The notes: generated by a model not told the origin, from the sequence alone. A stretch of DNA of 64,000 nt from Prolixibacteraceae bacterium (GCA_028282195.1 JANQII010000148.1:24322-88321), one strand, 5' to 3'; counted from the first letter of the stretch, positions 18,771 through 38,267 are shown. Program-made: numbers and translations.

Positions 18771-18940
18771 ATCACCTTTCCAACAAAAAATAATGTCTTT
18801 CCAGTATTGGAAGGCATCATTCCAAAGATTTAACCGATCATTCCAACATAATCAGTCAGTCATTCTAATTAAAAAGTCAATCTTTCCAACTCCATGAGGT
18901 ATCTTTCCAATAAAAAACGGAACCTTTCCTTAAGAATAAC
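18771..18940 (+). repeat. Eight direct copies of an 11-bp motif (consensus ATCWTTCCAAC) at about 21-bp spacing
   Basis: Cores near 18775, 18795, 18816, 18836, 18859, 18880, 18901 and 18922. Spacers are A-rich but not conserved. One inverted copy (TTGGAAGG) lies at 18807. Confidence 0.75.
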
Positions 18941-18969
18941 AGAAAATGAGAAAGGATGAACGCAATTTT

Positions 18970-19194
18970 TTAAGTCTCCATAACATATTGTTCCAAACTT
19001 TTGAATTGGATATGCTTATTTGTTGAGGTGTTACTTATCAATGTAATAACCCCATTTAACTCAACTTTATAAAACTCATTCGTTGTATCGTAACATTTAA
19101 GTATAAACAATCCATATTCCGGTTCAAATACTTCAGAATTGACTAACTTTTTATATCGATATTCTTCTTCGAATACCTTAATAATCACTTCCAT
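18970..19194 (-). CDS. Hypothetical protein (74 aa)
   Basis: ORF only. Overlaps the upstream 79-aa ORF by 17 nt in another frame. Confidence 0.4.
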   Translation of the reverse strand: MEVIIKVFEEEYRYKKLVNSEVFEPEYGLFILKCYDTTNEFYKVELNGVITLISNTSTNKHIQFKSLEQYVMET

Positions 19195-19417
19195 TTATTG
19201 ATATAATTTGATTTTGTAAATTCAATACAGTATCCTTATCCATATTTAAAATGGATACATTCCCATTTTGATTATTTATTTGGGAGATATCAATAAAAAC
19301 GAAACCCATTAGAGTTTTTTTTATTTCTTTCTCTCGGGATGAAGAAGTTGATGCTTGACAGGAATAGCATATATTTAGAATGGTAAATACCAGACCGATA
19401 ACTATTGTATTTTTCAT
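19178..19417 (-). CDS. Hypothetical small lipoprotein/secreted protein (79 aa)
   Basis: Signal-like N-terminus MKNTIVIGLVFTILNICYSC. Confidence 0.45.
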   Translation of the reverse strand: MKNTIVIGLVFTILNICYSCQASTSSSREKEIKKTLMGFVFIDISQINNQNGNVSILNMDKDTVLNLQNQIISINGSDY

Positions 19418-19549
19418 ATCAATCTATTTTTTCAATACTGATAATCTAAAATAATAAAAACAATACGTTCTTTGTTTTTACCCCCAAAATATTTCATAAT
19501 CAATGCAATTCAATCTTGTATTGGTTTATGCGAATTGAAAATCTGTTGG

Positions 19550-20059
19550 CTATGGGTTCGCTATATTGAATATTATCATCTCATGCAAAAGCCTAATAGC
19601 AATATTAATCAACAGTATTATAGATAATCGACCTATCCAGTTACTAACCCCAAAGTCTTTTCTTTTAATTATCAAAAAAATTACCATTATTACTGAGGAT
19701 AAATACCAAACAAAGAATGGAAATCCTTCAATCCAGTTAGTATAGTATATTACTCCCCAAACTTTAGGAATAATAAATAAGGAAGGAAATATACTAGTCA
19801 TTGAGATAATTAATATATACCAACTTTTTTTATCTAATTTTAGCAGTTTAAATCCCCCATAACCAAAAAATAAAATATACAACTCGGTAAGTATCCTGCG
19901 ATATAAAGGCATATGATTAAATCCTAATACAAATTCATTTTTGTGAATATACCATTCGAGAATATCAGATATAATATACACAGTAGTAACACTTATGATT
20001 ACTAAGGCCAGTGATTTGTATTTTTTAAGTTTTAAATCTTTACTTATTAAATTCTTCAT
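19550..20059 (-). CDS. Hypothetical integral membrane protein (about 5 TM)
   Basis: 169 aa, strongly hydrophobic helices, very AT-rich. Confidence 0.55.
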   Translation of the reverse strand: MKNLISKDLKLKKYKSLALVIISVTTVYIISDILEWYIHKNEFVLGFNHMPLYRRILTELYILFFGYGGFKLLKLDKKSWYILIISMTSIFPSLFIIPKVWGVIYYTNWIEGFPFFVWYLSSVIMVIFLIIKRKDFGVSNWIGRLSIILLINIAIRLLHEMIIFNIANP

Positions 20060-20136
20060 AAGAATTATAAATTTGATAACTTATTTCATCCTTGTCGTTA
20101 ACTGACATCCTTATTCAGTATATATGTTATTTTTCA

Positions 20137-20424
20137 TTAAAATATTGGGAAAAAGTAATTTGATAAAGTAAGAAGCCACAATGCCAATGTTACAATTAAA
20201 AATAAATTAATGCCTATTAATCTTTTATATAGCAATATTGACACACATATTCCCAATGCACCAACTAAAGCATTCATCAATAAAATATGATTTGGATACA
20301 TAAATAGGAACAAAATGTCAGTAAAATTATAGCAGTAATAAAAATAAAAAGAGTTAATTAATAAAAAAGCGTTAATGCATATTGCTATAAATCCGATTAT
20401 TCCGTTTGTTTTAATATTTTTCAT
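20137..20424 (-). CDS. Hypothetical small membrane protein (3 TM)
   Basis: 95 aa, three hydrophobic helices. Confidence 0.5.
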   Translation of the reverse strand: MKNIKTNGIIGFIAICINAFLLINSFYFYYCYNFTDILFLFMYPNHILLMNALVGALGICVSILLYKRLIGINLFLIVTLALWLLTLSNYFFPIF

Positions 20425-20483
20425 GTTTTACCAACCAGAAGTTCCCTTAAGAATATTCTTCTCAACGATCAACCTTTCAAAAA

Positions 20484-20951
20484 TTATTCTTTCAGTATGT
20501 GAGCATAGGCTTGCACTTCTTCATCCTTATCAATTATTTGCATCGCCACTTTTTTATCTCCTAATAAAAAAGTGAAGTTTGAATAATCTGAAAACACTAC
20601 TTTTCCAACCATTGTCGTTTCTTGACTTAACCCAAGATGTTCTATTAGTGAGTTAATATCAATTTTTTTAGACCACACAATATTTACCGGACTTCCTTCA
20701 ATATCAATTGTAATCTTTTCAATGAATAGAGAGTAATAAATTTCTGACAAAGTTACTACAACCCTGTACCTCATGCCTGCATTAGAATCATCATCCGAAT
20801 TTTCGTAATAATGATCTGGTGCTACATGTATGTTGCAAATTGATGGGTAATTTGCATTTTGCTCTTTTAATTGAACCCTTAATCCTTTTGGCATACCTAT
20901 GCAACTGCATGAGATGCTCAAAACGATCAGGATCAACATTATACTTTTCAT
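20484..20951 (-). CDS. Hypothetical lipoprotein (155 aa)
   Basis: Lipobox-like LIVLSISCSC. Confidence 0.55.
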   Translation of the reverse strand: MKSIMLILIVLSISCSCIGMPKGLRVQLKEQNANYPSICNIHVAPDHYYENSDDDSNAGMRYRVVVTLSEIYYSLFIEKITIDIEGSPVNIVWSKKIDINSLIEHLGLSQETTMVGKVVFSDYSNFTFLLGDKKVAMQIIDKDEEVQAYAHILKE

Positions 20952-20958
20952 GTTGATC

Positions 20959-21297
20959 CTATTTTATTTCTCTGTACCTCTTCTCCCATTGCTTTGTATC
21001 AGAATAATAGAACATTGATTCCCCCAGTGATGTCCCAAAAGAGACGGTATAATGTAAACTATCTCTTCTATCGTAATATAAAACGTCAATTCCTTCCTTT
21101 TCTTCAATTCCCATTTCAACTAAAGAAGCAGGTAATTTTGTATTTTCTTGCCTGTAAATTTCTATTTTTTCTACAAGTTCTTCACCTTTCTTTTTCAAAC
21201 GGACTTCTCTTATGTTCCTTAAATAGAAAAACCAAAATGAAAACAGAAATAATATAATACCTAATGCCCCAAATAAATATTTAAACTTCTTTTTCAT
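20959..21297 (-). CDS. Putative immunity protein for toxin 21303-22271 (membrane-anchored)
   Basis: 112 aa with an N-terminal TM helix. Starts 5 nt after the toxin stop. Confidence 0.55.
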   Translation of the reverse strand: MKKKFKYLFGALGIILFLFSFWFFYLRNIREVRLKKKGEELVEKIEIYRQENTKLPASLVEMGIEEKEGIDVLYYDRRDSLHYTVSFGTSLGESMFYYSDTKQWEKRYREIK

Positions 21298-21302
21298 TAT
21301 TT

Positions 21303-22271
21303 CTAAGGATTATCTTCAGTGTATAAAGGGATAGTAGTATTATTTGTTCGAGATGGCTTATCTTCAGGGTCAACCTCTGGTAATGAATTATAATTTGGAG
21401 CATTTTCTGGGTTTGTGGCTCCAAGTTCATTATTTAAATAATTCATTAGCTGTTCTCCAAATGTTAAATCACTTTTGGGATCAAAAAAATCTACTGCGAA
21501 TTCTGCACCAAATTTATCAGAAGGCAAGTCTTCATAGCTATATGCGGAATGTTTAGCAAAAAGTCTATCAGACATTTCCTGCTTATACCCATCCTGTACG
21601 GCTTCTCCAATGGGATTCTCTTTTCCTGCAGTTTTGTACTGATAAGCTTTTCCTGCATAGAACATGAAGTGTGCCATATCAACCCAGCCACCTTTTTCTG
21701 TATAAATGTATTTATCCTTAAACGTATTTATTCTTCCGGTATTAGCAGGCATTGGACGAGGATTATTTAATGTCCACTCCGTCTTACCTAAAGCCATCAT
21801 TGCTGAGTGAGCAGAACCTCCAGTTTTTAGTCCGAGTTTTGTGCCTGTTGTATTTATAGTGTTTACAAATCCTCTTGCCGTTCCGGCTTGTGGTTTAATC
21901 GGTTCTTTACCATCAGGGTCAATAAACTTAATTGGGTTATTCAATACATAATTGTACGGAGACCAACTTGAATATTCTTCGGTCAATGGGTCTGGACTTA
22001 CCCAACGACTAACCAGATGTGGGGACATATCACCTTCAAACAATAAAGTATCTTTTTCTACGAACCCAATAATTTTATTTGTCTGGGTATTAAATAATAC
22101 AGAACCAATCTCAACAACGTCTTTCAAATCGTGAAATTCCTGATATTTTCCATTGCTTAAAGTGACCACTTTGAAATTAAATCCATATTTCTCCCATGGA
22201 TATTCATCCGCTTTGCTTGTTAAAAAAGAAGCAAGTAAAAACATTAGAGATAAAATTTTTAACGACTTCAT
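21303..22271 (-). CDS. Secreted polymorphic toxin: short N-domain, Rhs-associated core motif and an unrecognised C-terminal domain
   Basis: Signal peptide. SRWVSPDPLTEEYSSWSPYNYVLNNPIKFIDPDG matches the C-terminal part of the Rhs repeat-associated core. No YD repeats. The C-terminal 200 aa are unrelated to the paralogue at 23184-24218. Confidence 0.75.
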   Translation of the reverse strand: MKSLKILSLMFLLASFLTSKADEYPWEKYGFNFKVVTLSNGKYQEFHDLKDVVEIGSVLFNTQTNKIIGFVEKDTLLFEGDMSPHLVSRWVSPDPLTEEYSSWSPYNYVLNNPIKFIDPDGKEPIKPQAGTARGFVNTINTTGTKLGLKTGGSAHSAMMALGKTEWTLNNPRPMPANTGRINTFKDKYIYTEKGGWVDMAHFMFYAGKAYQYKTAGKENPIGEAVQDGYKQEMSDRLFAKHSAYSYEDLPSDKFGAEFAVDFFDPKSDLTFGEQLMNYLNNELGATNPENAPNYNSLPEVDPEDKPSRTNNTTIPLYTEDNP

Positions 22272-22273
22272 AC

Positions 22274-22790
22274 TTATTCGATTTTTAGTTTGATTTTTTG
22301 ATTTTGATATTTATGTTTTTCTTCTTTTAACGAAACCAACCAATCCAAATACATCTCTGCTGGCATTCTTCTATAACCTAACTCATGTATAGAAGCGTAC
22401 AGCTCCTGGATTTCCTCAAATTCTCTTTTCTTCTGTTCTGTTGAAACCTCATTATTCTGCTTCCAAAGGCTTGTTTTTGTTTCTGCTTTGAATAAGAGTG
22501 CATTAATATTATTTGGGTGGTGTTCTAAAACTTTATCACAGGCTTTAAGGATAAAATTGCTATCTTTTGTTCCAAATTTTCTTTGGTATCCCATCGCTAA
22601 ATCAAGCATGCATGCCCCAATTGATTGCTTTGCACTTAAAGTATCCTCCCTTCCTGGATTGCGCGAAGATGGATATACCCTGAGATTAGCCAGGAATCAA
22701 TTGAACATACCCATTTAATTCAGGAGCATAAGTACCTTTTTAATAACATGATTAGTATCATTTTTGACCATGTTTATTTGTGTGAATTGT
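22274..22790 (-). pseudogene. Truncated, frameshifted copy of the transglutaminase-like/helical-repeat gene
   Basis: The open 111-aa ORF (22274-22609) aligns to the C-terminus of the 348-aa protein (DLAMGYQRKFG.. vs DLAQGYKKKFG..; ELGYRRMPAEMYLDWLVSLKEEK vs ELGYRTMPKEMYLDWLVSLRKEK). Upstream, GYIHLRAIQEG, IDSWLIS and NHVIKK segments continue the homology in shifted frames. The N-terminal part of about 170 aa, including the Cys motif, is absent. Confidence 0.7.
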
Positions 22791-22818
22791 AAATATGCTT
22801 GTTTAGAGCGTAGGATAA

Positions 22819-23166
22819 TCAAAAACTCAAATTCCCTTTTTTCCATTCACTTATTGTAGTCTCCGCCGTTAAAGAATGAATGCTAGAATCTTTTACAATA
22901 TCTTCTAATACTTTTAATCCAATAGATTCATCCACTGGCAAATAATAACAAGCTGACCACATTCTCACACCTACAGAACCGTGTGATAAAAATGGTTCTA
23001 ATTCATTAATCGCATTTATACTCTTGATAAAATCTACAGCCTTTCTAATTTCGTTATAATACTTATTCCCTGTTTTATAATCTCCTGATTCAGTTGCTTC
23101 AGCTTGTTTTATAGCTGCTTCTTCAAAAATTACTAAAGCGGTTTCTATATCTTTAATTTTCTTCAT
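22819..23166 (-). CDS. Putative immunity protein (DUF2019-like helical-repeat protein)
   Basis: 115 aa with no signal peptide. The pattern F..AA..QAEA..SGDYKTGNKYY....L..FLSHGSVGVRMWSACYYL....GLKVLEDI fits my recollection of DUF2019. Starts 17 nt after the nuclease-toxin stop. Confidence 0.6.
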   Translation of the reverse strand: MKKIKDIETALVIFEEAAIKQAEATESGDYKTGNKYYNEIRKAVDFIKSINAINELEPFLSHGSVGVRMWSACYYLPVDESIGLKVLEDIVKDSSIHSLTAETTISEWKKGNLSF

Positions 23167-23183
23167 TATCTAACTCTGTTATT

Positions 23184-24218
23184 TTAATAACCAAATTGCT
23201 TTAACATTTTTATTCCAAATTCATATTGAGTCTTATAATCTTGGGTACTTAACCATTTTCTTACAGTAACTCCATTAGTAAAAGGTTGTTTTGAGCTATA
23301 ATATCCTGATACTTTTGCATGAACAGAACCTTTACCGTGCGGAAGTTTAATTAAGTTATTAGTATTATGAATACTTTTAGCTCCGAATTTACTAATATTT
23401 GAAGGTGTTTGTTCAACTATATGATGCCAAGCATTATCTCTTCCTGCTGAACCCATCGCTTTCTTAAAATCATAAAATGATTTAAATCCTTTTCCTGTTT
23501 CTGATGTAGCTTTAGTAGTACTTGTTAATATCTTCTCCCCAAACTTTTTACCACTATTTGAACTTGCCCCAAAATCGCTTGATGCCAACATTAAAATTGT
23601 CCCTACGTTTTCAGGACTAAAAATCTGCATCATGGTCCAGCCTTCATAAGCAGCTTCTGTATCAACATTGTAACCACCAGAGGTATTTGCATCTTTTTGA
23701 AATTCATAGCCTTTTTCTGTCAAAGCATCTTCAATCTCTCCTACTGTCGCATCATCTGCTGCCAAATGAACCAAACCTTCATCAAACCTGTTCTCACTTC
23801 CTTGTTGATATTCGACCTGCCCTTGTTCCAAATTTAGATACCAATCTACATACCTACCATCCGGATCAATAAAAACTATCGGGTTGTCCATTGCATAGTT
23901 GTATGGGGACCAACTGGAATACTCTTCGGTCAACGGGTCAGGGCTTATCCAACGACTGGTTATGTCGGGCGATAACCCAAGTTGGTAAAAAGTAGAATCT
24001 TTTTCTACAAAACCCACAATTTGTCTGGTTTGGGTGTTGTATAAAACAGAGCCAATTTCTACAACATCTTCTAAATCGTGGAACTCTTGGTACTTTCCGT
24101 TACTTAGTGTCACCACTTTTAAGTTAAAGCCGTATTTTTTCCATGGGTATTCATCTGCTTTTCCTGTTAAAAATGAGACAAGTAACAAAAGCAAGAATAA
24201 TAATTTTACATGTTTCAT
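23184..24218 (-). CDS. Secreted polymorphic toxin: short N-domain, Rhs-associated core motif and an HNH/EndoVII-fold nuclease (WHH/AHH type)
   Basis: The N-terminal 121 aa are nearly colinear with 21303-22271, up to FIDPDG. The C-terminus has AWHHIVEQ...IHNTNNLIKLP...H. Confidence 0.75.
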   Translation of the reverse strand: MKHVKLLFLLLLLVSFLTGKADEYPWKKYGFNLKVVTLSNGKYQEFHDLEDVVEIGSVLYNTQTRQIVGFVEKDSTFYQLGLSPDITSRWISPDPLTEEYSSWSPYNYAMDNPIVFIDPDGRYVDWYLNLEQGQVEYQQGSENRFDEGLVHLAADDATVGEIEDALTEKGYEFQKDANTSGGYNVDTEAAYEGWTMMQIFSPENVGTILMLASSDFGASSNSGKKFGEKILTSTTKATSETGKGFKSFYDFKKAMGSAGRDNAWHHIVEQTPSNISKFGAKSIHNTNNLIKLPHGKGSVHAKVSGYYSSKQPFTNGVTVRKWLSTQDYKTQYEFGIKMLKQFGY

Positions 24219-24220
24219 AA

Positions 24221-25267
24221 TTATCTGATGTTAAAGTTTACTTTTTTATTTTCGTATTTTTGTTTTTCTTTTCTTAGCGAAACAAGCCAGTCCAAATACA
24301 TTTCTTTTGGCATGGTTCTGTAGCCCAATTCATGTATTTGACTATATAGTTCTTGTATTTTTATAAATTCCGTTTGTTTTTGTTCCTTGGATTGTAAAGT
24401 ATCAGCTTTCCACAAATCCATTTTTGTTTTTGCCTTCAGTAAAAGGGCGTTTATGTTCTTCGGAAAGTGTTTTAGAACTAAATCACAGGACTTTAAAACA
24501 AAGTCGCCATAATTTAAGCCAAATTTCTTTTTATACCCCTGTGCCAAATCTATTACACATGTACCAATGGATTGTTTTGTACTTAAAGTATCCATGTAAA
24601 TCCCTTGTTGGATTGCTGATAAATGGATATATCCCGAAGCCATTAACCAGGAATCAATAGGAAACATTCCACTTGTCAATTCCGTGTTGTACCACCCGAG
24701 AGATTTACATTGTTGTTTTATGTAGATATGGTTAGGTGCAAAAGACAAATAAGCTTTCTCGCCCAGTTCTTCAACAAGGATTTTATAGAAATAGGGCAAA
24801 GAATGGCAATTGCCTTTTTTTGTGGCAATGAGTTTAGTAACAAACATCTTTTGCCAATTTTCATTTCCAAAAATATCGTCGAAATCATAACTGAGAGGCA
24901 AATTATTAATGATTTCCCCATTTGGCATTTGAATGGGGATAGTGTCTTTCATTATCGTAAATACTGCTGCATAAACAGATACTTTTTGTTTGTCCTTTTC
25001 CGTATATTGTAAATCCCTTGTTTTGATAATCTGTTGGCAGATTGAAGCATAATAGTCAATGGTAGTGCAAAAAGACTCATACGAAAACTCATTGTCGAAG
25101 TAAGCATTTTCAACGGAGAACACGGCTTTCTTAAAATCTGCTTTTCGTTTCCCTTCAATCATTTCCTGTAATTCTATGAATACAGATTCGTATAGTTCCC
25201 TTTTTTCCTGTGCTTTTGTAGAAAGTAGGGTGAGAAACAAAAGAATTATAAAAATTATTTTTCGCAT
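24221..25267 (-). CDS. Secreted transglutaminase-like (SirB1-like) protein with a helical-repeat C-terminus
   Basis: Signal peptide. FGNENW...KKGNCHSLPYFYKILVEELG...FAPNHIYIK (Cys/His spacing as in the transglutaminase-like fold). Its stop abuts the toxin start. Confidence 0.65.
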   Translation of the reverse strand: MRKIIFIILLFLTLLSTKAQEKRELYESVFIELQEMIEGKRKADFKKAVFSVENAYFDNEFSYESFCTTIDYYASICQQIIKTRDLQYTEKDKQKVSVYAAVFTIMKDTIPIQMPNGEIINNLPLSYDFDDIFGNENWQKMFVTKLIATKKGNCHSLPYFYKILVEELGEKAYLSFAPNHIYIKQQCKSLGWYNTELTSGMFPIDSWLMASGYIHLSAIQQGIYMDTLSTKQSIGTCVIDLAQGYKKKFGLNYGDFVLKSCDLVLKHFPKNINALLLKAKTKMDLWKADTLQSKEQKQTEFIKIQELYSQIHELGYRTMPKEMYLDWLVSLRKEKQKYENKKVNFNIR

Positions 25268-26635
25268 TTATCTTGCTATCTGATGTATTAAACTTTTTTG
25301 ATTTTCAGGTTTTTGCTTTGCTTCTTCTAAACCCTGAAGCCACTTCAGGTATATTTCTTCCGGCATAAATTCATATCCTAAAGCATCTATTTGTGCATAA
25401 ACCTGGTACATTTTATCAAGCTCAATCCTGGCTTTAGGGTCTTTTACAAATTCTGTGATAGGGGGATTTCCTTTTTGTTTGGCAATGTGCATGGTCGTTT
25501 GAGTTTGCCAATTGGATTCCAGCATTAAGGCATTTAACTGGTTCGGGTAGTATTTCCTGACTGCATCTGAACAGTTCTTTACAAATTGGTCATAACCATA
25601 TTTCTTTGTATACCCGTTGGCTAAAGTATTTATTAGTGTTGTAACAGTTTCATGTGTGCTCAGGGTATCCATATAAATTCCGCTCCTGATAGCTTCAGTT
25701 TTTACATAGCCACTTTCAAGTATTGCCGCATCAGTAATTATTGCCCCACAGGTCAGCTCAGCATTTACCCAGTTACCTTTGGGGGATTTAAAACGGACAA
25801 AGGAATGGTTCGGGGAATAAGCCAGGTAAGATTCTGTGCCTAACTTTTGTGCGAGTATGAGGTAGAACAACGGCATTGAATGGCATTGACCGGAATTTGT
25901 CGCCATTAATTTTGAAACAAACATATTGCTCCAATTATCATTGCCCATATAATCATTAAAATCATATTTTATGGGATAATGGGTCAAGGTTTTTTCATGA
26001 CTTGATAATTTTACTTGTACCGTATCCGATATGTAATTAAAGATGATCAGGTTTTTTGCAAAATTGTCATCAGAAGAAATATTATTCTCTGCCATTGATA
26101 ACTGGCAAATGTGAACAGCCTGCTGAATTGAGCTTTCGAATTGTTTGTAATCCAACTTGTTTTCAAAATAGGCATTCTCAACAATAAAAACAGCTTTTTT
26201 CAAATCAAGGGGGATCTCCCCTTTCAGCATTTTCTTCAGTTCGTTTAATGCTGATTGAAAATGTTCTGTTCCATGCAATAGGCTTAAATCAGGAAGTTCG
26301 TAACTAATCATGTTTTGATTTAAGTCCGCGTATAATTCCTGTAATTGATAAAGAGAGGTTTGTCTTTGGTTTGTTTCAATTTGACGTATTACGCTCCGGT
26401 TTTGTATTTGTAAATCCTTCAAATTATTATGTATCGCTTTTTTGTCTCTATCAGTTCCAGCTTGCTGGAATGTTGTTGGTTTTGGTGTTTCAACAACAGG
26501 AATTTGTCCGTATGAACTCATTGTCCATATGAAGGCAAGAAGTGCTGATAAAAAAGCAGATGTATGCAATGCGAAGCGGATGTTCGAATATCGGGATTGC
26601 CGGAGTACTGCTTTATGGGGTGGTTTATCTATCAT
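25268..26635 (-). CDS. Paralogous secreted or anchored transglutaminase-like/helical-repeat protein
   Basis: 455 aa with an N-terminal hydrophobic helix. MGNDNW...NSGQCHSMPLFYLILAQKLG...SPNHSFVRF. Abuts the next gene with no gap. Confidence 0.65.
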   Translation of the reverse strand: MIDKPPHKAVLRQSRYSNIRFALHTSAFLSALLAFIWTMSSYGQIPVVETPKPTTFQQAGTDRDKKAIHNNLKDLQIQNRSVIRQIETNQRQTSLYQLQELYADLNQNMISYELPDLSLLHGTEHFQSALNELKKMLKGEIPLDLKKAVFIVENAYFENKLDYKQFESSIQQAVHICQLSMAENNISSDDNFAKNLIIFNYISDTVQVKLSSHEKTLTHYPIKYDFNDYMGNDNWSNMFVSKLMATNSGQCHSMPLFYLILAQKLGTESYLAYSPNHSFVRFKSPKGNWVNAELTCGAIITDAAILESGYVKTEAIRSGIYMDTLSTHETVTTLINTLANGYTKKYGYDQFVKNCSDAVRKYYPNQLNALMLESNWQTQTTMHIAKQKGNPPITEFVKDPKARIELDKMYQVYAQIDALGYEFMPEEIYLKWLQGLEEAKQKPENQKSLIHQIAR

Positions 26636-26690
26636 GTAATGAATTAATGCTTTGACGCTAATTTACAAATTTCATTCAAATAAATCAATT

Positions 26691-26727
26691 AATGAACAAA
26701 ATTTTATCTTCTGTTGATTTGTTCATT
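26691..26727. promoter_or_regulatory. Inverted repeat upstream of the toxin operon
   Basis: AATGAACAAA (26691-26700) - N17 - TTTGTTCATT (26718-26727), 56-92 nt upstream of the ATG at 26635. Confidence 0.3.
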
Positions 26728-27893: not shown

Positions 27894-30800
27894 TCACTTC
27901 AAATCCTTTATCAAACACAGATACGCATCTTCAAGTACCGGTTTGGCCTGTAAAGCACCCTCTGCAGGTTTATCCTTGCCAAGTACGCGCACACGAATCA
28001 TGTCCTCAACACGCATATGATGAACCACCATTTGCTTATTTGGCATTTTATCAAATTCTGAAGCTGGCACATCATATTGCCATACCAAATCATCTGCCAG
28101 ATTAACCATGTCAACAGGTGTTCCATGATATTTTACCCTGCCACGGTTAATTACAGCTACCTGGTTACACGAACTGGAGATATCTTCAATAATATGCGTT
28201 GAGAAAATCACAATTCGCTCACGGCTCAGTTCTACCAACAGGTTTCTAAAACGAATCCGTTCCCTTGGATCAAGACCTGCCGTTGGTTCATCAACCACCA
28301 GGATTTTTGGTAAATGAAGCAAAATCTGCGCTATCCCAATTCGCTGTTTCATACCCCCTGAAAACGAACCAATTTTATCGTTTCGTTTCTCCCACATATG
28401 CACCGATTTCAGTACATACTCAATTCGTCTCTCCCGGGTTTCCTTATCTGCCAAACCTTTGAGCAATGCCTGATATTCGAGAAATTCAATGGCAGGCATA
28501 TTTTCATAGGTGCCAAACTCTTGCGGTAGGTAACCAATCAAACCTTGCAATTCTTCCCGTTTCTTTTGGGTGTCAATTCCATTAATCCAAATCTTTCCAT
28601 AACTCTGATCCAGAATTCCACAAATGATCCGCATCATGGTTGATTTACCAGCCCCGTTTGGACCAAGCAAACCAAACATTCCGGTTCCAATGTCAAGGGA
28701 GACCCCATTCAATGCTTTAAATGGCTGACGACGTTTCCCAATTACAGGAATCTGTTTTACCAGACGGAAAATACTTCTCCTTAATGCACCAAAACGTCCG
28801 GTAATTCGATCAATATTAATTTTTTCTTCGTACAAGCGTTTTGCTGTGACGAAAACCAATAAGCTCAAATACCATAAAACCACCACTGTTACAACCAGTC
28901 CTATTGAATCCGTTTTCTTCCATAAAAAGAACAGCTCAACTAAAGGCAAAATCCAAAACAAGAATCCTTTACTATACTTGTCTGTTAAAAGGAATCTTTT
29001 TCTACGATTAACCTCAAATCGACGATTTAGGTAAATACCAAATGGACTCCACATTCGATTAACGAATAAGTAAACAGCTACCACCAAGGCAATTACCCAA
29101 AACGATGGATTCAGGAAAATAAAGGTGAAATAGATCATGAAGCCTAGTAACGGCAATTGCCAGATCAATTGGTCAAATTCTTTAATTGATTGGTATTCTT
29201 TTTCCAAACCAGCGCGCCTGCGAATATTTAATCCCCCTTGCCACTCCCTGGAGAAACGAGCCGGACGATCGTAAATCTTGACCAGATTTTGAACAACAAT
29301 ATGCAGCTTTTCATCTTCCCCAATCAGGCGTGTACCTGCTTTTTTCAAACTATTTAAAACAAACCAGGTCGTTCCCGGAACCAAAACAATTGCCAATACG
29401 GTATCCAGCATCTTCCAGACAGTAGAATCGACATTCGTGTAAATCAGCACAAAGGCTCCAGTCATTGCCGCCAACTGAAATACTTTCAGTTTCCAATTCA
29501 GTTGATAAAACCACTGTAAAGCACTTTCCAGTCCTGAATAAAAGGTTGGAATAAAAATAAGTGTCAGCAACGTACTTAAGGCCAAACCACCTATAACAAT
29601 AATGGCAAATGGAGCACCAATTACGCTAACATATTCTGCCTGCCCCATCGCCAATGGCATCATAGCAACAATAGTCGTAATTGCTGTAATCAGAATAGGA
29701 CGCACGCGAGACAAACCAGCCGTCATCAATGCCCGTGACCTTCGATAGCCACGTTTGCGAAGAATATTGCTGTAATCAATTAATATGATTCCATTGTTTA
29801 CCACAACCCCCAGTAAAATCAAAAATCCAATCATCGTATTGGCATTGAACAAACTGTTTCCTGTTATTATCAAAGCAAGCAATGATCCTATTGCAGCCAG
29901 GGGAATTGAAAACAACAAGACAAAAGGCGTGGCAACCGATTCAAACACCGAAGCCAAAATCATGAATATTAAGATGATTGCCGCCCAAATAAGGAAGTTA
30001 AATTCAGCCAGTTCATTTTCTTCATGAATGATTTCAGCAGCTACTCCTGAAGGGAAATTATAACCTGCAATCAACTCATCAATTTCATACCGATAAGATG
30101 CAAGCAAATCTTTGGATTCCTGAGCCTCATCAATCATGCTGTAGGTAATCTCAATCTGTTTCTCCTGATTAACCCGATTTATCCCAGCCAATCCCCGGGC
30201 ATAAATTAACCGGCTAAAATCTTCCAACTCATGCAGACCTCCTGCAGCATCACTAACCTGCAGTGCTTTCAGGTCGTCCATGGTTCGAACATCCTCATCT
30301 TCATCCGTTTCTTCGCCCTGTTTAATTACAATTTCATATTCATCCACGCCTTGATTGAACATCACTCCAGTGCTAATGTCTCCGGAAAATGAATTCAATT
30401 CAGAAGATACTTCTGATGCCTGGATATTGTACTCTGTCATTAACAGCGGATCAAAAATCATCTGAACCTCCGGTCGATTATCAGAAACATTAACCCTTGC
30501 CCGCTCAATAAAATCCATTTCTTCCAGAAAGTATTCGATATCGTTGGCAATGGTCTGCATCAGTTCAAAGTCTTCCCCTTTCAATACAATCTTCTCTTCC
30601 TCTGCCCCAATTCCAAGTAGCCGTTCAAAATCACCCATCATATTCCGACCAGCACCTCCAAAGTTTCTGTTCGTTTGTACCTGCTCAAATGAAATTTCTG
30701 CCTGATCAATATTTTTAGTCAGCTCATTTATGGATGACTTTATTTCAGCAAAGGTCCTCCCGTCAATTTCTTCGTATTCTTCAACCAACCGAACTGTAAC

Positions 30801-32600
30801 AACTGCTTCTTCCTCCTCAATCCGACTAATAACATCCAACTTTTCCTTTACATCTTCCAGTTTCTCTTCAATCTTAGCAACTGTCTTATCGGTGGTTTCA
30901 AGGCTAGATCCAGATGGCATTGTGACAAATAGTTGCACCTGTTCTTCTTCAACTTCCTGCAAGGAACTCACGCTAACTGCCAGGCTAATAAAAACGGTCA
31001 GGAAGAAAATTGTTACCCCCCCGATAATTGTTGCCAGTGGTTTGCGCATGCTAGATTTCAGCAATAGCAGGTAAATCTGGACCATTCGGTTATTCGTCGT
31101 AACCTTCTCGTAAAAGATGCTTTTTCCTTTTCTTCTTTTCAAAATGAGATGAATAGTCATTGGCACAAACAGCAAAGCTACAGCCAGAGAAACCAATAAG
31201 GTGGAAATGATAGAAACCCCGACATTTTTACCCAGCATTTCAATCATAAAATTGGTTGAAAAAACAAATGGTAGGAAAACGGTTATTGTCGTCAATGTTG
31301 CTGCAACAATGGAACGCCAAACTTCAGTTGTTCCCTGAATCACGGCTTTATCACTATCCACACCTTTCCCGGAAAGCCGGTAAATATTTTCAAGCACTAC
31401 GACACTATTATCCAGAAGCATACCGATGGCCAATGCCATGCCAACCAGCGTCAGGCTATTCAGGGTAATATCATAAGCATAAAAGAAGTTGAAAGCGGTA
31501 AAAACTGAAACAGGAATGGCTAACGCAATGAAAGCTACTATTCGAATATTCTTCAGAAAAATCCACAACACAAAAACTGCCAGCAGCCCACCGATAAGTG
31601 CCAAATCGATAATCTGATCAATGTTCTCCTCCATGGTTTCAGCAGCATTGTGCTGGATAACAATTTCAATATCCTTACCCGAAAGCCTATTATTCAGTTT
31701 TGCAATCAACTCCTGTGTATCATGGGATAACTCGATCTGGTTGGCTTGCGAATCATTAATCAACTGAATAGTGACTGCTTCTTTACCATTTACACGGCTA
31801 AAACTGGTTTCTTCCTTTACACCAAACCGAACCTCGGCAATATCTTTCAAAAGAATTGGACCATCAGCCACAACCAGGTTTTCGATGTCGGTAATTTGAT
31901 CGTATTCAGCGGTAACATGCACGAAATAAAGTCGGTCCTTTTCTTTCAGGTTGCCAACATAACTTCGGGATTGTGAATTCTGCGAAAGCTTGGAACGAAT
32001 TTGTCCCGGGGTAATCTGGTAAGCTTCGCATGCCTCCATGTCCAGGATCAGCTCAATTGATTTTTCCTGCCCGCCATAAACATTTACCCCGGCAATACCA
32101 TCCAGGTTTTCAAGGTCAGGAGCAATTTCCTGATCAACCAAATTCCGAACACGATTTATGCCTCCGCTGCCCCGGGCCTGCAGCTCCATGAATTGTGCGT
32201 CAATCTGCGAAAGATCAACCCGCGTAACATCTACCTGAACATCTTCAGGCATGCTACTTTGAATTTCGTTTATTTTTTCCTGAAGTTTGAGATAGGCAAA
32301 ACCAGAATCAACATCTTTCTGATAATACACCACAATCATTATCCGCCGGGAAGTAATATTGGTCTCAAGCGACTCAATGCCTTCTAAAGTGCTGATAGCT
32401 CCCTCCAAAGGAATAGCAACTTCATTCTCCAGATATTCAGGGTCAGCTTCACGAACGGACATTGCCTGAACAAAAAGGAAAGGCAATTCAGCATTAGGCA
32501 ACAACTCCATCTTTAGCTGCTTGTAGGACACGTAACCCAAAAGGGTCAGTCCAATAAACAACATGGAAATGAATGTTTTTCTATCTATTATAAATTTCAT
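27894..32600 (-). CDS. Fusion protein: RND efflux permease, extra TM helices and an ABC ATPase
   Basis: Continuous 1568-aa ORF. RND part is aa 1-1030 (GMLLDNSVVVLENI). ABC part has Walker A GPNGAGKST, signature FSGGMKQR, Walker B ILVVDEPTAGLD and H-loop STH. Confidence 0.85.
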   Translation of the reverse strand: MKFIIDRKTFISMLFIGLTLLGYVSYKQLKMELLPNAELPFLFVQAMSVREADPEYLENEVAIPLEGAISTLEGIESLETNITSRRIMIVVYYQKDVDSGFAYLKLQEKINEIQSSMPEDVQVDVTRVDLSQIDAQFMELQARGSGGINRVRNLVDQEIAPDLENLDGIAGVNVYGGQEKSIELILDMEACEAYQITPGQIRSKLSQNSQSRSYVGNLKEKDRLYFVHVTAEYDQITDIENLVVADGPILLKDIAEVRFGVKEETSFSRVNGKEAVTIQLINDSQANQIELSHDTQELIAKLNNRLSGKDIEIVIQHNAAETMEENIDQIIDLALIGGLLAVFVLWIFLKNIRIVAFIALAIPVSVFTAFNFFYAYDITLNSLTLVGMALAIGMLLDNSVVVLENIYRLSGKGVDSDKAVIQGTTEVWRSIVAATLTTITVFLPFVFSTNFMIEMLGKNVGVSIISTLLVSLAVALLFVPMTIHLILKRRKGKSIFYEKVTTNNRMVQIYLLLLKSSMRKPLATIIGGVTIFFLTVFISLAVSVSSLQEVEEEQVQLFVTMPSGSSLETTDKTVAKIEEKLEDVKEKLDVISRIEEEEAVVTVRLVEEYEEIDGRTFAEIKSSINELTKNIDQAEISFEQVQTNRNFGGAGRNMMGDFERLLGIGAEEEKIVLKGEDFELMQTIANDIEYFLEEMDFIERARVNVSDNRPEVQMIFDPLLMTEYNIQASEVSSELNSFSGDISTGVMFNQGVDEYEIVIKQGEETDEDEDVRTMDDLKALQVSDAAGGLHELEDFSRLIYARGLAGINRVNQEKQIEITYSMIDEAQESKDLLASYRYEIDELIAGYNFPSGVAAEIIHEENELAEFNFLIWAAIILIFMILASVFESVATPFVLLFSIPLAAIGSLLALIITGNSLFNANTMIGFLILLGVVVNNGIILIDYSNILRKRGYRRSRALMTAGLSRVRPILITAITTIVAMMPLAMGQAEYVSVIGAPFAIIVIGGLALSTLLTLIFIPTFYSGLESALQWFYQLNWKLKVFQLAAMTGAFVLIYTNVDSTVWKMLDTVLAIVLVPGTTWFVLNSLKKAGTRLIGEDEKLHIVVQNLVKIYDRPARFSREWQGGLNIRRRAGLEKEYQSIKEFDQLIWQLPLLGFMIYFTFIFLNPSFWVIALVVAVYLFVNRMWSPFGIYLNRRFEVNRRKRFLLTDKYSKGFLFWILPLVELFFLWKKTDSIGLVVTVVVLWYLSLLVFVTAKRLYEEKINIDRITGRFGALRRSIFRLVKQIPVIGKRRQPFKALNGVSLDIGTGMFGLLGPNGAGKSTMMRIICGILDQSYGKIWINGIDTQKKREELQGLIGYLPQEFGTYENMPAIEFLEYQALLKGLADKETRERRIEYVLKSVHMWEKRNDKIGSFSGGMKQRIGIAQILLHLPKILVVDEPTAGLDPRERIRFRNLLVELSRERIVIFSTHIIEDISSSCNQVAVINRGRVKYHGTPVDMVNLADDLVWQYDVPASEFDKMPNKQMVVHHMRVEDMIRVRVLGKDKPAEGALQAKPVLEDAYLCLIKDLK

Positions 32601-32625: not shown

Positions 32626-35600
32626 TTAATTTCTTCTAAACCGGTCACGAATAACTTCAATTCCTTCGTACATACATGGGATAACCACCAGCGTCAACAA
32701 GGTTGAAGTAATCAAGCCGCCAATTACAGCCAAAGCCATAGGCGAACGCAATGATGCGCTTTCTCCGATTCCCAAAGTCAATGGGAACAAGGCCAGAATT
32801 GTGGTTAAGCTGGTCATAATAATTGGACGAATCCGTTGTTGCCCGGCCTGCAATATGGCTTCCAAACGTTCCATGCCGGATTTGCGCAACTGCAATATCC
32901 GATCGACCAGAATAATCGAATCATTTACTGCAATCCCCACCAACATAATGATACCGATATAAGCCATAATGTTAAAGGTTTTCCCAAGCAGAAAGAACGT
33001 AAGTACCGAGCCAACAGCTGCCAACGGGATTGTAAGCAAAATTGTAAACGGGTGCAGCAATGACTCAAACTGGGAAGCGAGCACCATGTACACCAAAATG
33101 ATTGAAAGCATTAAGGCAAAGCTTAAACTCGCCATTGATTCCCGGCGTTTTTCTTCTTCACCACTAATGTTAATCCTGTAATCCGGAGGCACATTAATTG
33201 GGGCTATGGCAGTTTGGATTTCCTTAACTGCCTTATCCAAAGGCATATCTTTTTCGAGTTGTGCGGTAATTTTGCCAATTCGATTTTGGTTTCTGCGGAA
33301 AACTTCTTTGGGTGATTGTCCAATGGTAATATCAGCCAATTCATTTACCCTAAATTCCTGATCATTGCTAACGATACGCAGTTCATCCAGTTGACTTAAA
33401 TTTTTATCGGGCAGTTTGATAGTAATGTCCTGCATTTCACCTTGTCGCTCAATTTCTCCAGCAACTTTACCTTCCAGTTGATTTTGAATTTGAGAAACGA
33501 TATTGGTTACACTCAGGTTAAACATACCTGCCCGTAAGCGGTCAATCACGACTTCAACTTCAGGGGAACCTTCTTCCAACGATGATTCAAAATTGTACAT
33601 CCCCGGTAGGTTTTGCACACGCTCTTTTACTTCAGCAGCCAATCCCTCAATGATCTCCAAATCTTCACCCTGAACTTCAATCACCAGCGGGGCTTCATCT
33701 GTGCCCATAATGCTTTTTAGAGCTGTCTCATCTTGTTTGAAATTAATCTCCATACCTGGCAAATCGCCAACTACCCGGCTAATGGATTGAATGGCTTTGG
33801 TTGAAGCAATCTGGCTTTCCGGTTTCAAAATGATTTTTATAGTCGCGGTATTCTCTCCTTCAAAAATATCGGTAGATGAGCTGCTGATTCCTTTTGTTGG
33901 TCCAATATGACTGTAAACAGTTTCAATTTCACCACCCAACAGTTCAGAAATAATTGTTTCAAGGTTATCCACAGCTGCTGTGGTACGCTCTAATCGAGTC
34001 CCTTCCTGCATCCGAATTTCTACACTGAATTCACGCGTTTCAGTTTTTGGCATGAATTCATTTCCAATAAGCGGAATAAGAAAAATTGATCCCCCAACCA
34101 ATAAAAAGCTTATTAGAATTATTGCCCATTTTGCTTTTAATATTTTTTCGAGAAAACGTCCGTAACCTTTTACCTTAACCGATTGAATTTTCCGTTCTTT
34201 TTTCTTCTTATAAAAAAGATTAAAAAGCATTGGAATAACCAATATGGCAACGACCAACGAAGACAAAAGTGAAAATGCTACCGTCCATGCCTGGTCTTTG
34301 AACAACTCGCCAGAAGCACCATGCAAATAAACAATAGGCAGAAATACAATAATCGTTGTTATTGTTGAAGCTGTAATTGCCCCGCCAACCTGGGAAGTCC
34401 CAACAATTGCAGCCTCACGAACAGACATCCCATTTTCATGATTTCGGAATATATTCTCCATGACCACAATGGCATTATCCACCAACATACCGGCACCAAG
34501 CGCAAGGCCACCTAAGGTCATAATGTTCAGGCTAAGGCCATTGAAATACATTAGGTTAAATGTAGCAATAACCGAAATCGGAATAGCAATACTGATAATT
34601 AATGTGCTTCCAAATCTTCTTAAAAAGATAAACAGAACAAAAACGGCCAACACAACTCCCAGCAAAGCAGATTCCTCAACTTCATTGATTGCATCGTTAA
34701 TAAAACTTCCCTGGTTTGTGACTACTTGAATATTATAGCCGGGCAATGCCTTTTGAATTTCGGTAAAAGCCTCATCAATTTGCTCTACCGCTTTAACCGT
34801 GTTAAAGCGGGTTTCTTTATAAATTGAAAGCCCCAGGCATCGGTTACCATTTAACCTTACAATGTTTTCGGGGTCTTTATTTTGAAAACTAACCGTTGCA
34901 ACTTCACGCAAAAATATGGGGGCAAACGAAGCTGTATTGTCGTCTGCAATTACTCGCTTATAGCCAACAATCACTTCCTCAAAATCTTCGATATCTGTTA
35001 ATAAGCTTACACCTTTTACCACATAACGCAAGCCCATTTCTTCAATGGAACCGCCCGAAATATCCTGGTTAAAACTTTGAATACGACTGCTGATTTCATC
35101 CATGGTCAGCCCGTAAGCATCCAACAAATACTGGCTGGTTTCAATCAGCACTTCATTGTCTTCTGAACCTGACACTTCAACATCAGCAACCCCTTCCAAA
35201 CGAATCAGCTCATTACGGATATAATTTTCAGCTACTTTGCGTAATTCATTCATATCATCAATCGATGAATGGCTTAACCCATAAACCATTACTGGTGACG
35301 TATTCGGGTCATGTTGGGTAATGTTGATCTCATCAATTTCTTCGTTCTGCGCAAAAGATGTAACTGCTTTTTGCAAATCCAGGAAAGCATCATCCATATC
35401 TTTATCCCAGGCATACTCTACTGTAATTTGTGCGCTCCCAACTTTTGAAACAGAAGATACCTGAACAACATCCGACTGCCGAATTGCCAAAGCTTCCAGG
35501 TTTTCCACAAACTGTTTTTCCATTTCTTCAGGTGGCCGTTCCCCTGATTCCAGCTCAATAAACAACCTGGGGTTGTTCAGCTCCGGGAACAGGTCAACCC

Positions 35601-35700
35601 CCAGCTTGTCGTAGGAAATGTAGCCCAGCAGTACAACCCCAAGTACCATCATTAGAATGGTAACCGGAAAGTTGACTGAAAATTCGCTTAATTTCTTCAC
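32626..35700 (-). CDS. RND efflux permease (AcrB-like)
   Basis: 1024 aa, 12-TM/two-large-loop layout, GMLVDNAIVVMENI. Confidence 0.93.
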   Translation of the reverse strand: MKKLSEFSVNFPVTILMMVLGVVLLGYISYDKLGVDLFPELNNPRLFIELESGERPPEEMEKQFVENLEALAIRQSDVVQVSSVSKVGSAQITVEYAWDKDMDDAFLDLQKAVTSFAQNEEIDEINITQHDPNTSPVMVYGLSHSSIDDMNELRKVAENYIRNELIRLEGVADVEVSGSEDNEVLIETSQYLLDAYGLTMDEISSRIQSFNQDISGGSIEEMGLRYVVKGVSLLTDIEDFEEVIVGYKRVIADDNTASFAPIFLREVATVSFQNKDPENIVRLNGNRCLGLSIYKETRFNTVKAVEQIDEAFTEIQKALPGYNIQVVTNQGSFINDAINEVEESALLGVVLAVFVLFIFLRRFGSTLIISIAIPISVIATFNLMYFNGLSLNIMTLGGLALGAGMLVDNAIVVMENIFRNHENGMSVREAAIVGTSQVGGAITASTITTIIVFLPIVYLHGASGELFKDQAWTVAFSLLSSLVVAILVIPMLFNLFYKKKKERKIQSVKVKGYGRFLEKILKAKWAIILISFLLVGGSIFLIPLIGNEFMPKTETREFSVEIRMQEGTRLERTTAAVDNLETIISELLGGEIETVYSHIGPTKGISSSSTDIFEGENTATIKIILKPESQIASTKAIQSISRVVGDLPGMEINFKQDETALKSIMGTDEAPLVIEVQGEDLEIIEGLAAEVKERVQNLPGMYNFESSLEEGSPEVEVVIDRLRAGMFNLSVTNIVSQIQNQLEGKVAGEIERQGEMQDITIKLPDKNLSQLDELRIVSNDQEFRVNELADITIGQSPKEVFRRNQNRIGKITAQLEKDMPLDKAVKEIQTAIAPINVPPDYRINISGEEEKRRESMASLSFALMLSIILVYMVLASQFESLLHPFTILLTIPLAAVGSVLTFFLLGKTFNIMAYIGIIMLVGIAVNDSIILVDRILQLRKSGMERLEAILQAGQQRIRPIIMTSLTTILALFPLTLGIGESASLRSPMALAVIGGLITSTLLTLVVIPCMYEGIEVIRDRFRRN

Positions 35701-35712
35701 GGTTAATCCTTT

Positions 35713-36771: not shown

Positions 36772-36778
36772 GACGATA

Positions 36779-38257: not shown

Positions 38258-38267
38258 ATCGTTATTT

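Follow-up and report, generated by a model that had tools for sequence, protein, structure and literature searches.

A stretch of 64,000 nucleotides (nt) from a Prolixibacteraceae bacterium (GCA_028282195.1, JANQII010000148.1:24322-88321; the window, taken here at its full length) carries on its minus strand, between positions 20959 and 26635, one copy of a Bacteroidota-wide polymorphic toxin module, in the form of a full unit followed by a partly truncated one. The full unit holds, in this order, the genes of two transglutaminase-like/tetratricopeptide repeat (TPR)-like paralogues (TG455 and TG348), a toxin (Tox1) and its presumed immunity protein (Imm1); the second holds a TG348 remnant, another toxin (Tox2) and its presumed immunity protein (Imm2). 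The explanation that best fits the whole, to which we assign a probability of about 0.7, is that Tox1 and Tox2 are short Sec-exported toxins in which the tail of an Rhs core forms the junction with the toxin tip, while the TG pair acts as partner of the N-terminal domain (N-domain). The module is apparently undescribed, and would represent a polymorphic toxin system in which carrier and partners are new: Pfam and NCBIfam hold no model for the N-domain or the TG proteins, and a description of the module was not found in literature searches, where absence is not proof of absence.

Bacteroidota predominate in gut, soil, and marine communities, and their known interbacterial weapons include type VI secretion systems (T6SS) of subtype iii, the TANFOR toxins, the Bacteroidales-secreted antimicrobial proteins (BSAPs) and the bacteroidetocins. 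The module is abundant, with at least 842 clusters of the toxin and more than 2000 relatives of the partner protein, and its toxin pool is the same as that of the Rhs systems. If the TG pair truly carries or processes the toxin, the exit of Sec-exported polymorphic toxins from diderm cells (unsolved for MafB) becomes testable, as does the function of the Rhs autoprotease motif without a cocoon. A profile of the N-domain could also allow annotators to tell these short toxins from "RHS repeat-associated core" fragments.

Two Toxins with a Common N-terminus

Tox1 (23184-24218, 344 amino acids (aa)) and Tox2 (21303-22271, 322 aa) are encoded on the minus strand by intact open reading frames (ORFs), each with a start codon and a signal peptide. 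An earlier note on this DNA, made from the sequence alone, had described the two proteins as nearly colinear over their first 121 aa and unrelated after a DPDG sequence (nt ~23856 and ~21909), and both points hold. BLASTP aligns aa 1-122 with 90 of 122 residues identical (74%, E = 2e-67) and returns nothing significant past aa 122. At the nucleotide level, a common block of 824 nt with 71% identity (23855-24670 against 21908-22711) stops at the DPDG codon; at its other end it extends upstream past both starts into the 3' portion of the preceding gene. As the gene remnant ahead of Tox2 is the 3' end of a third TG copy, the duplicated unit is TG348, toxin, and immunity gene jointly.

Each toxin is composed of a signal peptide, an N-domain of ~65 aa, the last ~35 aa of the Rhs core and a variable toxin region of ~200 aa. 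In Tox1, the signal peptide read from the sequence covers aa 1-21 (24156-24218, minus strand; MKHVKLLFLLLLLVSFLTGKA followed by DE, with no lipobox Cys), the family-specific pre-core N-domain aa 22-86 (23961-24155) and the Rhs-core tail aa 87-121 (23856-23960; SRWISPDPL...NPIVFIDPDG). The corresponding segments of Tox2, on the same strand, lie at 22209-22271, 22014-22208, and 21909-22013. In homologues the N-domain begins at approximately aa 15-25, consistent with the signal peptide call in Tox1. Lipoprotein or outer-membrane vesicle sorting through a lipobox was considered and rejected, as Cys is absent from the signal peptides of both toxins.

The tail matches the end of the Rhs core, as the earlier note had read it, with no YD-repeat shell in front. 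Positions 42-75 of the 76 in NCBIfam TIGR03696 (Rhs_assc_core) match aa 87-121 in both toxins; with the curated cutoff at 32.5 bits, this partial match lies slightly above it in Tox2 (36.2 bits) and slightly below it in Tox1 (31.7 bits). No RHS/YD-repeat family of Pfam matches either protein. In a sequence search of the PDB, the tail aligns with YenC2 residues 656-693, and it is through the tail that the family profile reaches TcC/TccC3, YenC2, and teneurin. It holds the PxxxxDPxG motif and both Asp positions of the Rhs aspartyl autoprotease. In RhsA the catalytic residues are D1324 and D1346, and the cut site lies four residues past the second Asp (PMC8765631). D94 and D118 (Tox1 numbering), which are invariant across the alignments, align with this pair via the YenC2 alignment. 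Self-cleavage is therefore plausible, and we infer from the residue pattern that the tail may be a self-cleavage site that frees the toxin.

The N-domain, on the other hand, has no detectable relation to the YD repeats of Rhs proteins. A hidden Markov model (HMM) of the N-domain matches every short toxin (E <= 5e-9), and gives no match (E > 1) to the full-length Rhs proteins at loci retrieved through the tail only, which carry classical Rhs genes for 1100-2000 aa with orphan arrays and no TG gene. When the family was compared by hhalign with 45 C-terminal regions of classical Bacteroidota Rhs proteins, just the last 43 columns aligned. Since neither the HMM nor the profile-profile comparison shows a relation to Rhs repeats, the N-domain is its own family and the Rhs-derived part of the toxin is limited to ~35 residues.

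In many homologues of the toxins and of TG455 the predicted signal-peptidase site precedes Gln, and a conserved motif, NPF..(Y/F/I)G in the toxin or QIP....P.P in TG455, starts a few residues from the mature N-terminus, where it might be a recognition element. The Chryseobacterium toxins (L012, L016, L021) have an extra conserved segment of ~55 aa between signal peptide and N-domain, with the motif KPY.NPVKLTKEER.RPYMDEVLK.RD..TPEEAERRRKNI; one of these loci (L012) holds three toxin copies.

Size and Distribution of the Toxin Family

Two collections of relatives were assembled, one by scanning one genome per GTDB species with an alignment of the N-terminal 122 aa (79 distinct loci), the other by a word-indexed protein search (314 proteins). 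In addition, a HMMER profile built from 50 sequences was run against 1.84 billion cluster representatives with a threshold of E <= 1e-30. When sequences are clustered at 50% identity, at least 842 clusters have the toxin architecture, and almost all of these belong to Bacteroidota. Among the best 150 matches, proteins range from 133 to 404 aa, mostly 300-400, and the module occupies approximately residues 15-125, directly after the signal peptide. The 302 collected members have a median length of 316 aa; PxxxxDPxG is present in 86% of them and S/TxDP in 95%. The residue following the Gly of DPxG is mainly R or K, and is R, K, or M in classical Bacteroidota Rhs proteins.

Hosts include Marinifilum, Dysgonomonas, Bacteroides, Prevotellaceae, Prolixibacteraceae, and Lentimicrobium, together with Chryseobacterium and other Flavobacteriales, Flammeovirga, Ekhidna, Roseivirga, Thermoflexibacter, Saprospiraceae, and Chitinophagales. 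The family spans the classes Bacteroidia, Flavobacteriia, Cytophagia, Chitinophagia, and Saprospiria, and one host metagenome-assembled genome (MAG) bears the label Fibrobacter.

Behind the conserved N-terminus the family is highly diverse. The 262 C-terminal regions compared fall into 119 similarity clusters, among which Pfam recognizes Peptidase_M91, TseH, DUF4329, Tox-MPTase3, Tox-REase-7, Toxin-JAB1, Tox-HNH-EHHH, and Colicin_D. One MAG (GCA_034521425.1; L001/L006) contains two tandem copies of the module in which TG genes and toxins are full of frameshifts, either by assembly error or by true decay, and the region adjoins an IS66 transposase and HepT/MNT toxin-antitoxin pairs.

Exchange of Cassettes at the Rhs Tail

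Toxin/immunity cassettes are swapped at the Rhs tail, which serves as their junction; the partners in these swaps are other copies, sister strains, and classical Rhs loci. One case comes from a sister strain (GCA_028277505.1; L088), whose TG348 and TG455 are 99.1% and 98.7% identical to those of the window. At the N-terminus, the first toxin of this strain shares 96% of its residues with Tox1, and the region past DPDG is 64% identical to the C-terminus of Tox2; two Imm2-like genes follow. This swap, together with the divergence of Tox1 and Tox2 past DPDG and the 119 C-terminal clusters, marks the family as a polymorphic toxin system. Exchange with classical Rhs loci is seen twice. In Bacteroidales bacterium 6E (L055), the combination of Tox1 tip and Imm1 is met again within a classical Rhs orphan array, and the metallopeptidase C-terminus of a Marinifilum toxin (L002) is nearly identical to that of a classical Rhs orphan of Mariniphaga (L040), with the junction at DPDGR. 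Taken together, these swaps indicate that the tail is a common junction, which opens the Rhs toxin pool to the short carrier. The earlier description of the locus as a pair of polymorphic-toxin cassettes, which have a Sec-type N-terminus in common but differ in their C-termini and have a small downstream gene each, is borne out by recurrence across the family and by toxin/immunity pairs that vary together.

The Transglutaminase-like Proteins as Probable Partners

TG455 (25268-26635, minus strand) is the long paralogue, with a signal peptide, a Q/N-rich linker and the motifs GQCHS...PNH...AELT. TG348 (24221-25267, minus strand), the short paralogue, abuts TG455 and ends 2 nt ahead of the Tox1 start; the two proteins are 38% identical. 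In the second unit, the TG348-type remnant (22274-22711, minus strand) corresponds to approximately aa 204-347, is 5'-truncated and frameshifted, and ends 2 nt ahead of the Tox2 start. By tblastn it is 63% identical to TG348 aa 226-347, with aa 204-222 in a different frame; its extent to 22711 is set by the blastn block, and an ORF of 111 aa (22274-22609) represents the 3' end of this third TG copy.

Partnership between the TG proteins and the toxin is suggested first by gene linkage. ORFs were called in every fetched locus and searched with the window proteins, and TG genes were sought within 8 kb of the toxin. Among 38 distinct toxin loci, found by a toxin query or by a TG348-homologue query, both TG types lie within 8 kb in 34; the exceptions are one Flammeovirga locus (L007) and the loci L027, L029, and L032, where hardly any flanking sequence, or none, is available. 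The reverse look-up, starting from TG348 homologues, finds TG455-like, TG348-like, and N-domain toxin genes together in all seven loci. Gene order is variable, with the toxin between, ahead of, or behind the TG genes. All-against-all clustering of the ORFs from 36 loci revealed no further conserved family, and no outer-membrane barrel, T6SS or type IX secretion system (T9SS) gene.

The second line of evidence is gene fusion. The TG348-type protein and the toxin form a single ORF in three loci, namely those of Ekhidna (L010, 6921-8960; 679 aa) and Roseivirga (L022; 661 aa) and a third one (L015). Here the N-domain is joined to the TG C-terminus by an acidic linker of short length, and the toxin part no longer has a signal peptide of its own. 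The motifs GNCHS, PNH, and NTEL are intact in both full-length fusions (L010, L022). Such fusion of TG348 to the N-domain is strong evidence for a physical partnership.

What kind of proteins are TG348 and TG455? A word-indexed search returns 2232 relatives of TG348 at E <= 1e-3. In an alignment of 55 of its sequences, G152-N-C154-H-S, P178-N-H180, W192, N194, and E196 are invariant. Transglut_core2 (PF13369) is matched by 31 of the 55 members, with a best E of 9.8e-6; the TG348 of the window has no match itself, and TG455 has a weak one. A confident AlphaFold2 (AF2) model of TG348, with a predicted local distance difference test (pLDDT) of 88.9 and a predicted template modeling score (pTM) of 0.88, places a beta core at the center, between helices on the N-terminal side and TPR-like helices on the C-terminal side. 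Both proteins have signal-peptide-like starts without a lipobox. On the invariant motifs, the PF13369 matches among relatives, the model, and the signal-peptide-like starts, we treat both as putative secreted members of the transglutaminase/papain-fold superfamily, which are probably catalytically competent. A PDB sequence-profile search with TG348 returned nothing. The Foldseek match of TG348 to a subunit of the Flavobacterium johnsoniae β-barrel assembly machinery (BAM) complex (probability 0.47) was set aside as generic helical-repeat similarity.

A divergent pair occurs in Thermoflexibacter ruber (L019, 2567-4946). It consists of a TG-like lipoprotein with the motif GQCRS, in which Arg replaces the His of GNCHS/GQCHS, followed by a 399-aa toxin that has the Rhs tail and a metallopeptidase C-terminus but differs in its pre-core N-domain. 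The pair seems to represent another subfamily, related to the first, in which TG protein and Rhs tail are combined.

Toxin Tips and Presumed Immunity Proteins

The C-terminal region of Tox1 is divided into two parts. The middle domain (aa 122-240; 23499-23855, minus strand) is common to toxins with other tips, being present also in the proteins P0330 and P0293, the latter with a Colicin_D tip (E = 6.5e-18), and in the toxin of locus L087. Its occurrence in front of two cytoplasm-acting tips suggests a function in entry, by analogy with the toxin regions of CdiA (CdiA-CT) and with colicins, and it may therefore be an entry or translocation domain. The tip (aa 241-344; 23187-23498, minus strand) carries the motif WHH...N..N...H...H..Y, which fits the residue pattern described for Tox-AHH/WHH (PMC3482391). 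It is homologous to the C-terminus of the classical Rhs orphan in L055 (E = 1e-30), where the motif is kept. The tip is thus a putative HNH/EndoVII-type nuclease at the level of its motif.

Imm1 (22819-23166, minus strand) is a cytoplasmic, helical protein of 115 aa without a signal peptide, and is presumed to confer immunity to Tox1. A homologue follows the homologous tip in L055 (E = 4e-15), and that homologue matches DUF2019 (PF09450) with an E of 2.6e-4, just under cutoff. Imm1 can therefore be called DUF2019-like by transitivity, in agreement with the family named for it in the earlier note.

The C-terminus of Tox2, which the same note had left unrecognized, carries published signatures of CapCone/Lipocone proteins. 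The region (aa 122-322; 21306-21908, minus strand) and four relatives give weak, collinear matches to DUF4056, the best of which reaches 21 bits where the cutoff is 23.6. Within the Lipocone superfamily, DUF4056 corresponds to the family CapCone-DUF4056, in a clade with the lipid II phosphatase TelC, and CapCone proteins are characterized by a Gly six residues before the His of H2, an xD four residues before it, and S/GxxSxx before the Asp of H4 (PMC12419801). All three signatures are present in Tox2, in GGWVDMAH (G at -6, xD at -4) and SAYSYED (SxxSxxD), and are conserved in seven members. The Tox2 tip is thus predicted, from these residues, to be a CapCone/Lipocone-like enzyme of the TelC clade that hits lipid-linked cell-wall precursors outside the cytoplasm. 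A search of the PDB with the Tox2 family profile gave no match for the tip, and reached only TcC, teneurin, and YenC2, via the Rhs tail.

The immunity proteins reported to counter Lipocone toxins are membrane-anchored or are lipoproteins, and most often BamE-like (PMC12419801). Imm2 (20959-21297, minus strand), the presumed immunity protein of Tox2, has 112 aa, with one N-terminal transmembrane (TM) helix followed by ~80 residues. Imm2-like genes also stand behind toxins with Tox2-like tips in L088 (52% and 36% identity) and L086 (E = 1.7e-5). The spacing from toxin stop to downstream gene is 17 nt for Tox1-Imm1 and 5 nt for Tox2-Imm2, as first reported.

Proposed Mechanism and Alternatives

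In the mechanism proposed here, each short toxin would be exported by Sec via its signal peptide. TG348 and TG455 would attach to the N-domain, either in the periplasm or on the surface of the cell, and would there carry, process, or anchor the toxin; this partnership is drawn from the near-universal gene linkage together with the natural TG348-N-domain fusions. The Rhs tail would then cleave itself and release the toxin. Tox1 would bring a cytoplasm-acting, nuclease-type tip behind the common middle domain and would be countered by the cytoplasmic, DUF2019-like Imm1. Tox2 would act from the periplasmic side against lipid-linked precursors of the envelope, and the membrane-anchored Imm2 would counter it.

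A bolder version can be put forward only tentatively, and we consider it doubtful. It holds that TG455, TG348, and the N-domain are a self-contained, new delivery route of Bacteroidota, in which Sec export would be followed by a TG-pair-dependent step to the surface or outside, and that the 35-residue Rhs remnant is a shell-free self-cleavage switch.

Several observations weigh against the proposed mechanism. Classical Rhs autoproteolysis uses a far larger plug domain, folded within a shell (PMC8765631), and the invariant Asp residues could have been kept for binding rather than cleavage. The N-terminal module is ill-defined when modeled alone: AF2 with a 50-sequence alignment of aa 20-128 gives a pLDDT of 68 and a pTM of 0.32, and Foldseek with this model finds nothing under E = 2.7 in the PDB. 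The fold assignment of the TG proteins is weak, being based on sub-threshold to marginal Pfam matches and motif conservation, and Foldseek of TG348 against the PDB yields TPR-like local matches with no significant match for the core. The Flammeovirga toxin of L007 has no TG genes within 8 kb. Linkage would also fit TG proteins that are co-effectors or maturation proteases instead of carriers. As to the payloads, the earlier call of an HNH/WHH-AHH nuclease stands for the motif of the Tox1 tip but finds no match among Pfam, NCBIfam, or PDB profiles, and the fold of Imm2 was judged by eye.

The possibility that TG348 and TG455 are enzymes that act on toxin or target, either as a cysteine peptidase that matures or activates the toxin or as a transglutaminase-type co-effector released with it, is the alternative that survives best, although we think it rather improbable. 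Both paralogues have an invariant Cys-His-(Asn/Glu) set, which is kept in the fused forms, the presumed fold belongs to a superfamily of peptidases and transglutaminases, and releasing peptidases are common among polymorphic toxins (PMC3482391). Fusion to the N-terminus of the toxin, however, suggests a stable association and not the transient contact of enzyme and substrate, and the TG proteins are non-polymorphic and have no immunity gene of their own. This alternative overlaps with the proposed mechanism, and the tools used here do not separate the two.

Alternatively, the toxins may be cargo of a T9SS or T6SS-iii encoded elsewhere in the genome, with the TG genes unrelated to delivery. The visible portion of the genome amounts to 64 kb, TseH-like and other T6SS-type tips occur in the family, and a T9SS is probable in the host: a gene for the gliding-motility lipoprotein GldB (PF25594, E = 1.5e-102) lies at 52743-53741 on the minus strand, followed by an outer-membrane beta-barrel gene, which marks the host as a gliding and probably T9SS-type member of Bacteroidota. 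Nevertheless, Pfam and NCBIfam detect no C-terminal sorting domain (Por_Secre_tail/TIGR04183/TIGR04131) in Tox1, Tox2, TG348, or TG455, and the hypervariable C-terminus of the toxins is incompatible with such a domain. Sec signal peptides are not known to be a feature of T6SS substrates. The toxins themselves, whose N-terminus is signal-peptide-like, match no PAAR, VgrG, or Hcp family in Pfam or NCBIfam, and no conserved PAAR, VgrG, Hcp, or T9SS gene is found near the 36 loci or among the scanned ORFs of the window. Export by such a system is accordingly judged quite unlikely. The earlier note had named no secretion partner in the window; this is correct for T6SS and T9SS genes, none of which is among the scanned ORFs, but overlooks the TG genes directly upstream (24221-26635).

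That Tox1 and Tox2 derive from full-length Rhs genes, as decayed remnants or as orphan C-terminal cassettes, the N-terminus being leftover Rhs sequence, could be argued from the genuine Rhs-core sequence of aa 87-121, from the orphan-array-like position of the second cassette behind a truncated gene and from the classical Rhs orphan arrays of related genomes, but is effectively refuted, and the test by decay set in the earlier note thereby settled, by the two complete ORFs with start and signal peptide, by an architecture found in at least 842 clusters (50% identity) and always N-terminal in proteins of ~320 aa, by a 65-aa N-domain that shows no relation to Rhs repeats in HMM or hhalign comparison, and by conserved partner genes of its own that are absent from classical Rhs loci.

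Comparison with Known Systems

The closest analogue of the proposed Sec-exported toxins and their TG partners is the MafB/MafA/MafI system of Neisseria (PMC4287609; PMC3482391). Like MafB, Tox1 and Tox2 are Sec-signal-dependent polymorphic toxins without repeats, which join a lineage-restricted N-terminal domain to a variable C-terminal toxin and are followed by an immunity gene; as in the MafA/MafB pair, a conserved, non-polymorphic accessory gene stands directly upstream. The likeness is architectural only, since the N-domain has no match to DUF1020 (PF06255) in Pfam. Whereas MafA is a lipoprotein adhesin, the accessory genes here encode two soluble transglutaminase-like/TPR-like paralogues. 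An Rhs-core tail at the junction is a further difference from MafB, and the distribution is phylum-wide in Bacteroidota instead of restricted to one genus.

With classical Rhs and TcC proteins (RhsA of P. protegens, YenC2, TccC3), the toxins share the terminal core with its two Asp and PxxxxDPxG directly before the toxin, and they draw on the same pool of toxin/immunity cassettes. Unlike them, they have a Sec signal peptide, no YD repeats, no shell, and no link to PAAR/VgrG, and at ~320 aa they are far shorter than the 1100-2000 aa of classical Rhs proteins. The aspartyl-protease plug domain, made up of 14 Rhs repeats in RhsA (PMC8765631), is reduced to about 35 residues.

Sec-dependent RHS toxins with an inactive transglutaminase domain at the N-terminus have been described (Zhang et al., 2012; PMC3482391). 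The Ekhidna and Roseivirga fusions resemble this group in their order of signal peptide, transglutaminase fold, Rhs-derived sequence, and toxin. In that group, however, the catalytic residues have disappeared and a complete RHS repeat array comes next, whereas here Cys and His do not vary and no repeats occur; moreover, the TG module is mostly a separate gene, and is duplicated.

For the tips, Tox2 resembles TelC and the CapCone proteins in its signatures, in its weak, below-cutoff DUF4056 matches and in having a presumed immunity protein that is membrane-anchored, and a short N-terminal carrier of the kind seen here is not among the trafficking contexts listed for Lipocone proteins in PMC12419801. 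The C-terminal region of Tox1 is like CdiA-CT and colicins in that a common middle segment precedes differing cytoplasm-acting tips (WHH-motif and Colicin D), but no sequence relation of its middle domain to known entry domains was found.

Genomic Context

The module lies in a distinctly AT-rich part of the window, as had been noticed for the block at 19.0-26.6 kb. The interval 18900-26700 has 32.8% GC, against 37.2% in the remaining window, and is the minimum among all 7.8-kb windows of the 64 kb. Scans for sigma-70 promoters, terminators, and the Bacteroidota -7 motif TAnnTTTG gave no excess over shuffled sequences and no usefully positioned hit; operon structure is consequently deduced from the gene spacing of 0-17 nt only.

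After Imm2 follow five small, closely packed ORFs (18970-20951, minus strand; 28% GC), which encode a lipoprotein-like protein of 155 aa, two multi-TM proteins of 95 and 169 aa, and two soluble proteins of 79 and 74 aa. They have no homologue in any fetched locus or protein set. These ORFs may be orphan immunity genes, and their membership in the module is uncertain.

The remaining window contains housekeeping genes and a resistance-nodulation-division (RND) efflux operon. An ORF of 1568 aa at 27894-32600 (minus strand) combines a complete AcrB-type RND transporter (aa 2-1022) with an ATP-binding cassette (ABC) ATPase domain (aa 1297-1441). It shares its operon with genes at 32626-41615 that encode a second AcrB, a HlyD-type adaptor, an outer-membrane efflux protein, and a protein of 1115 aa in which an ABC-2 membrane domain is joined to Peptidase_M1 and Golvesin_C. 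The sister strain has the same RND-ABC fusion.

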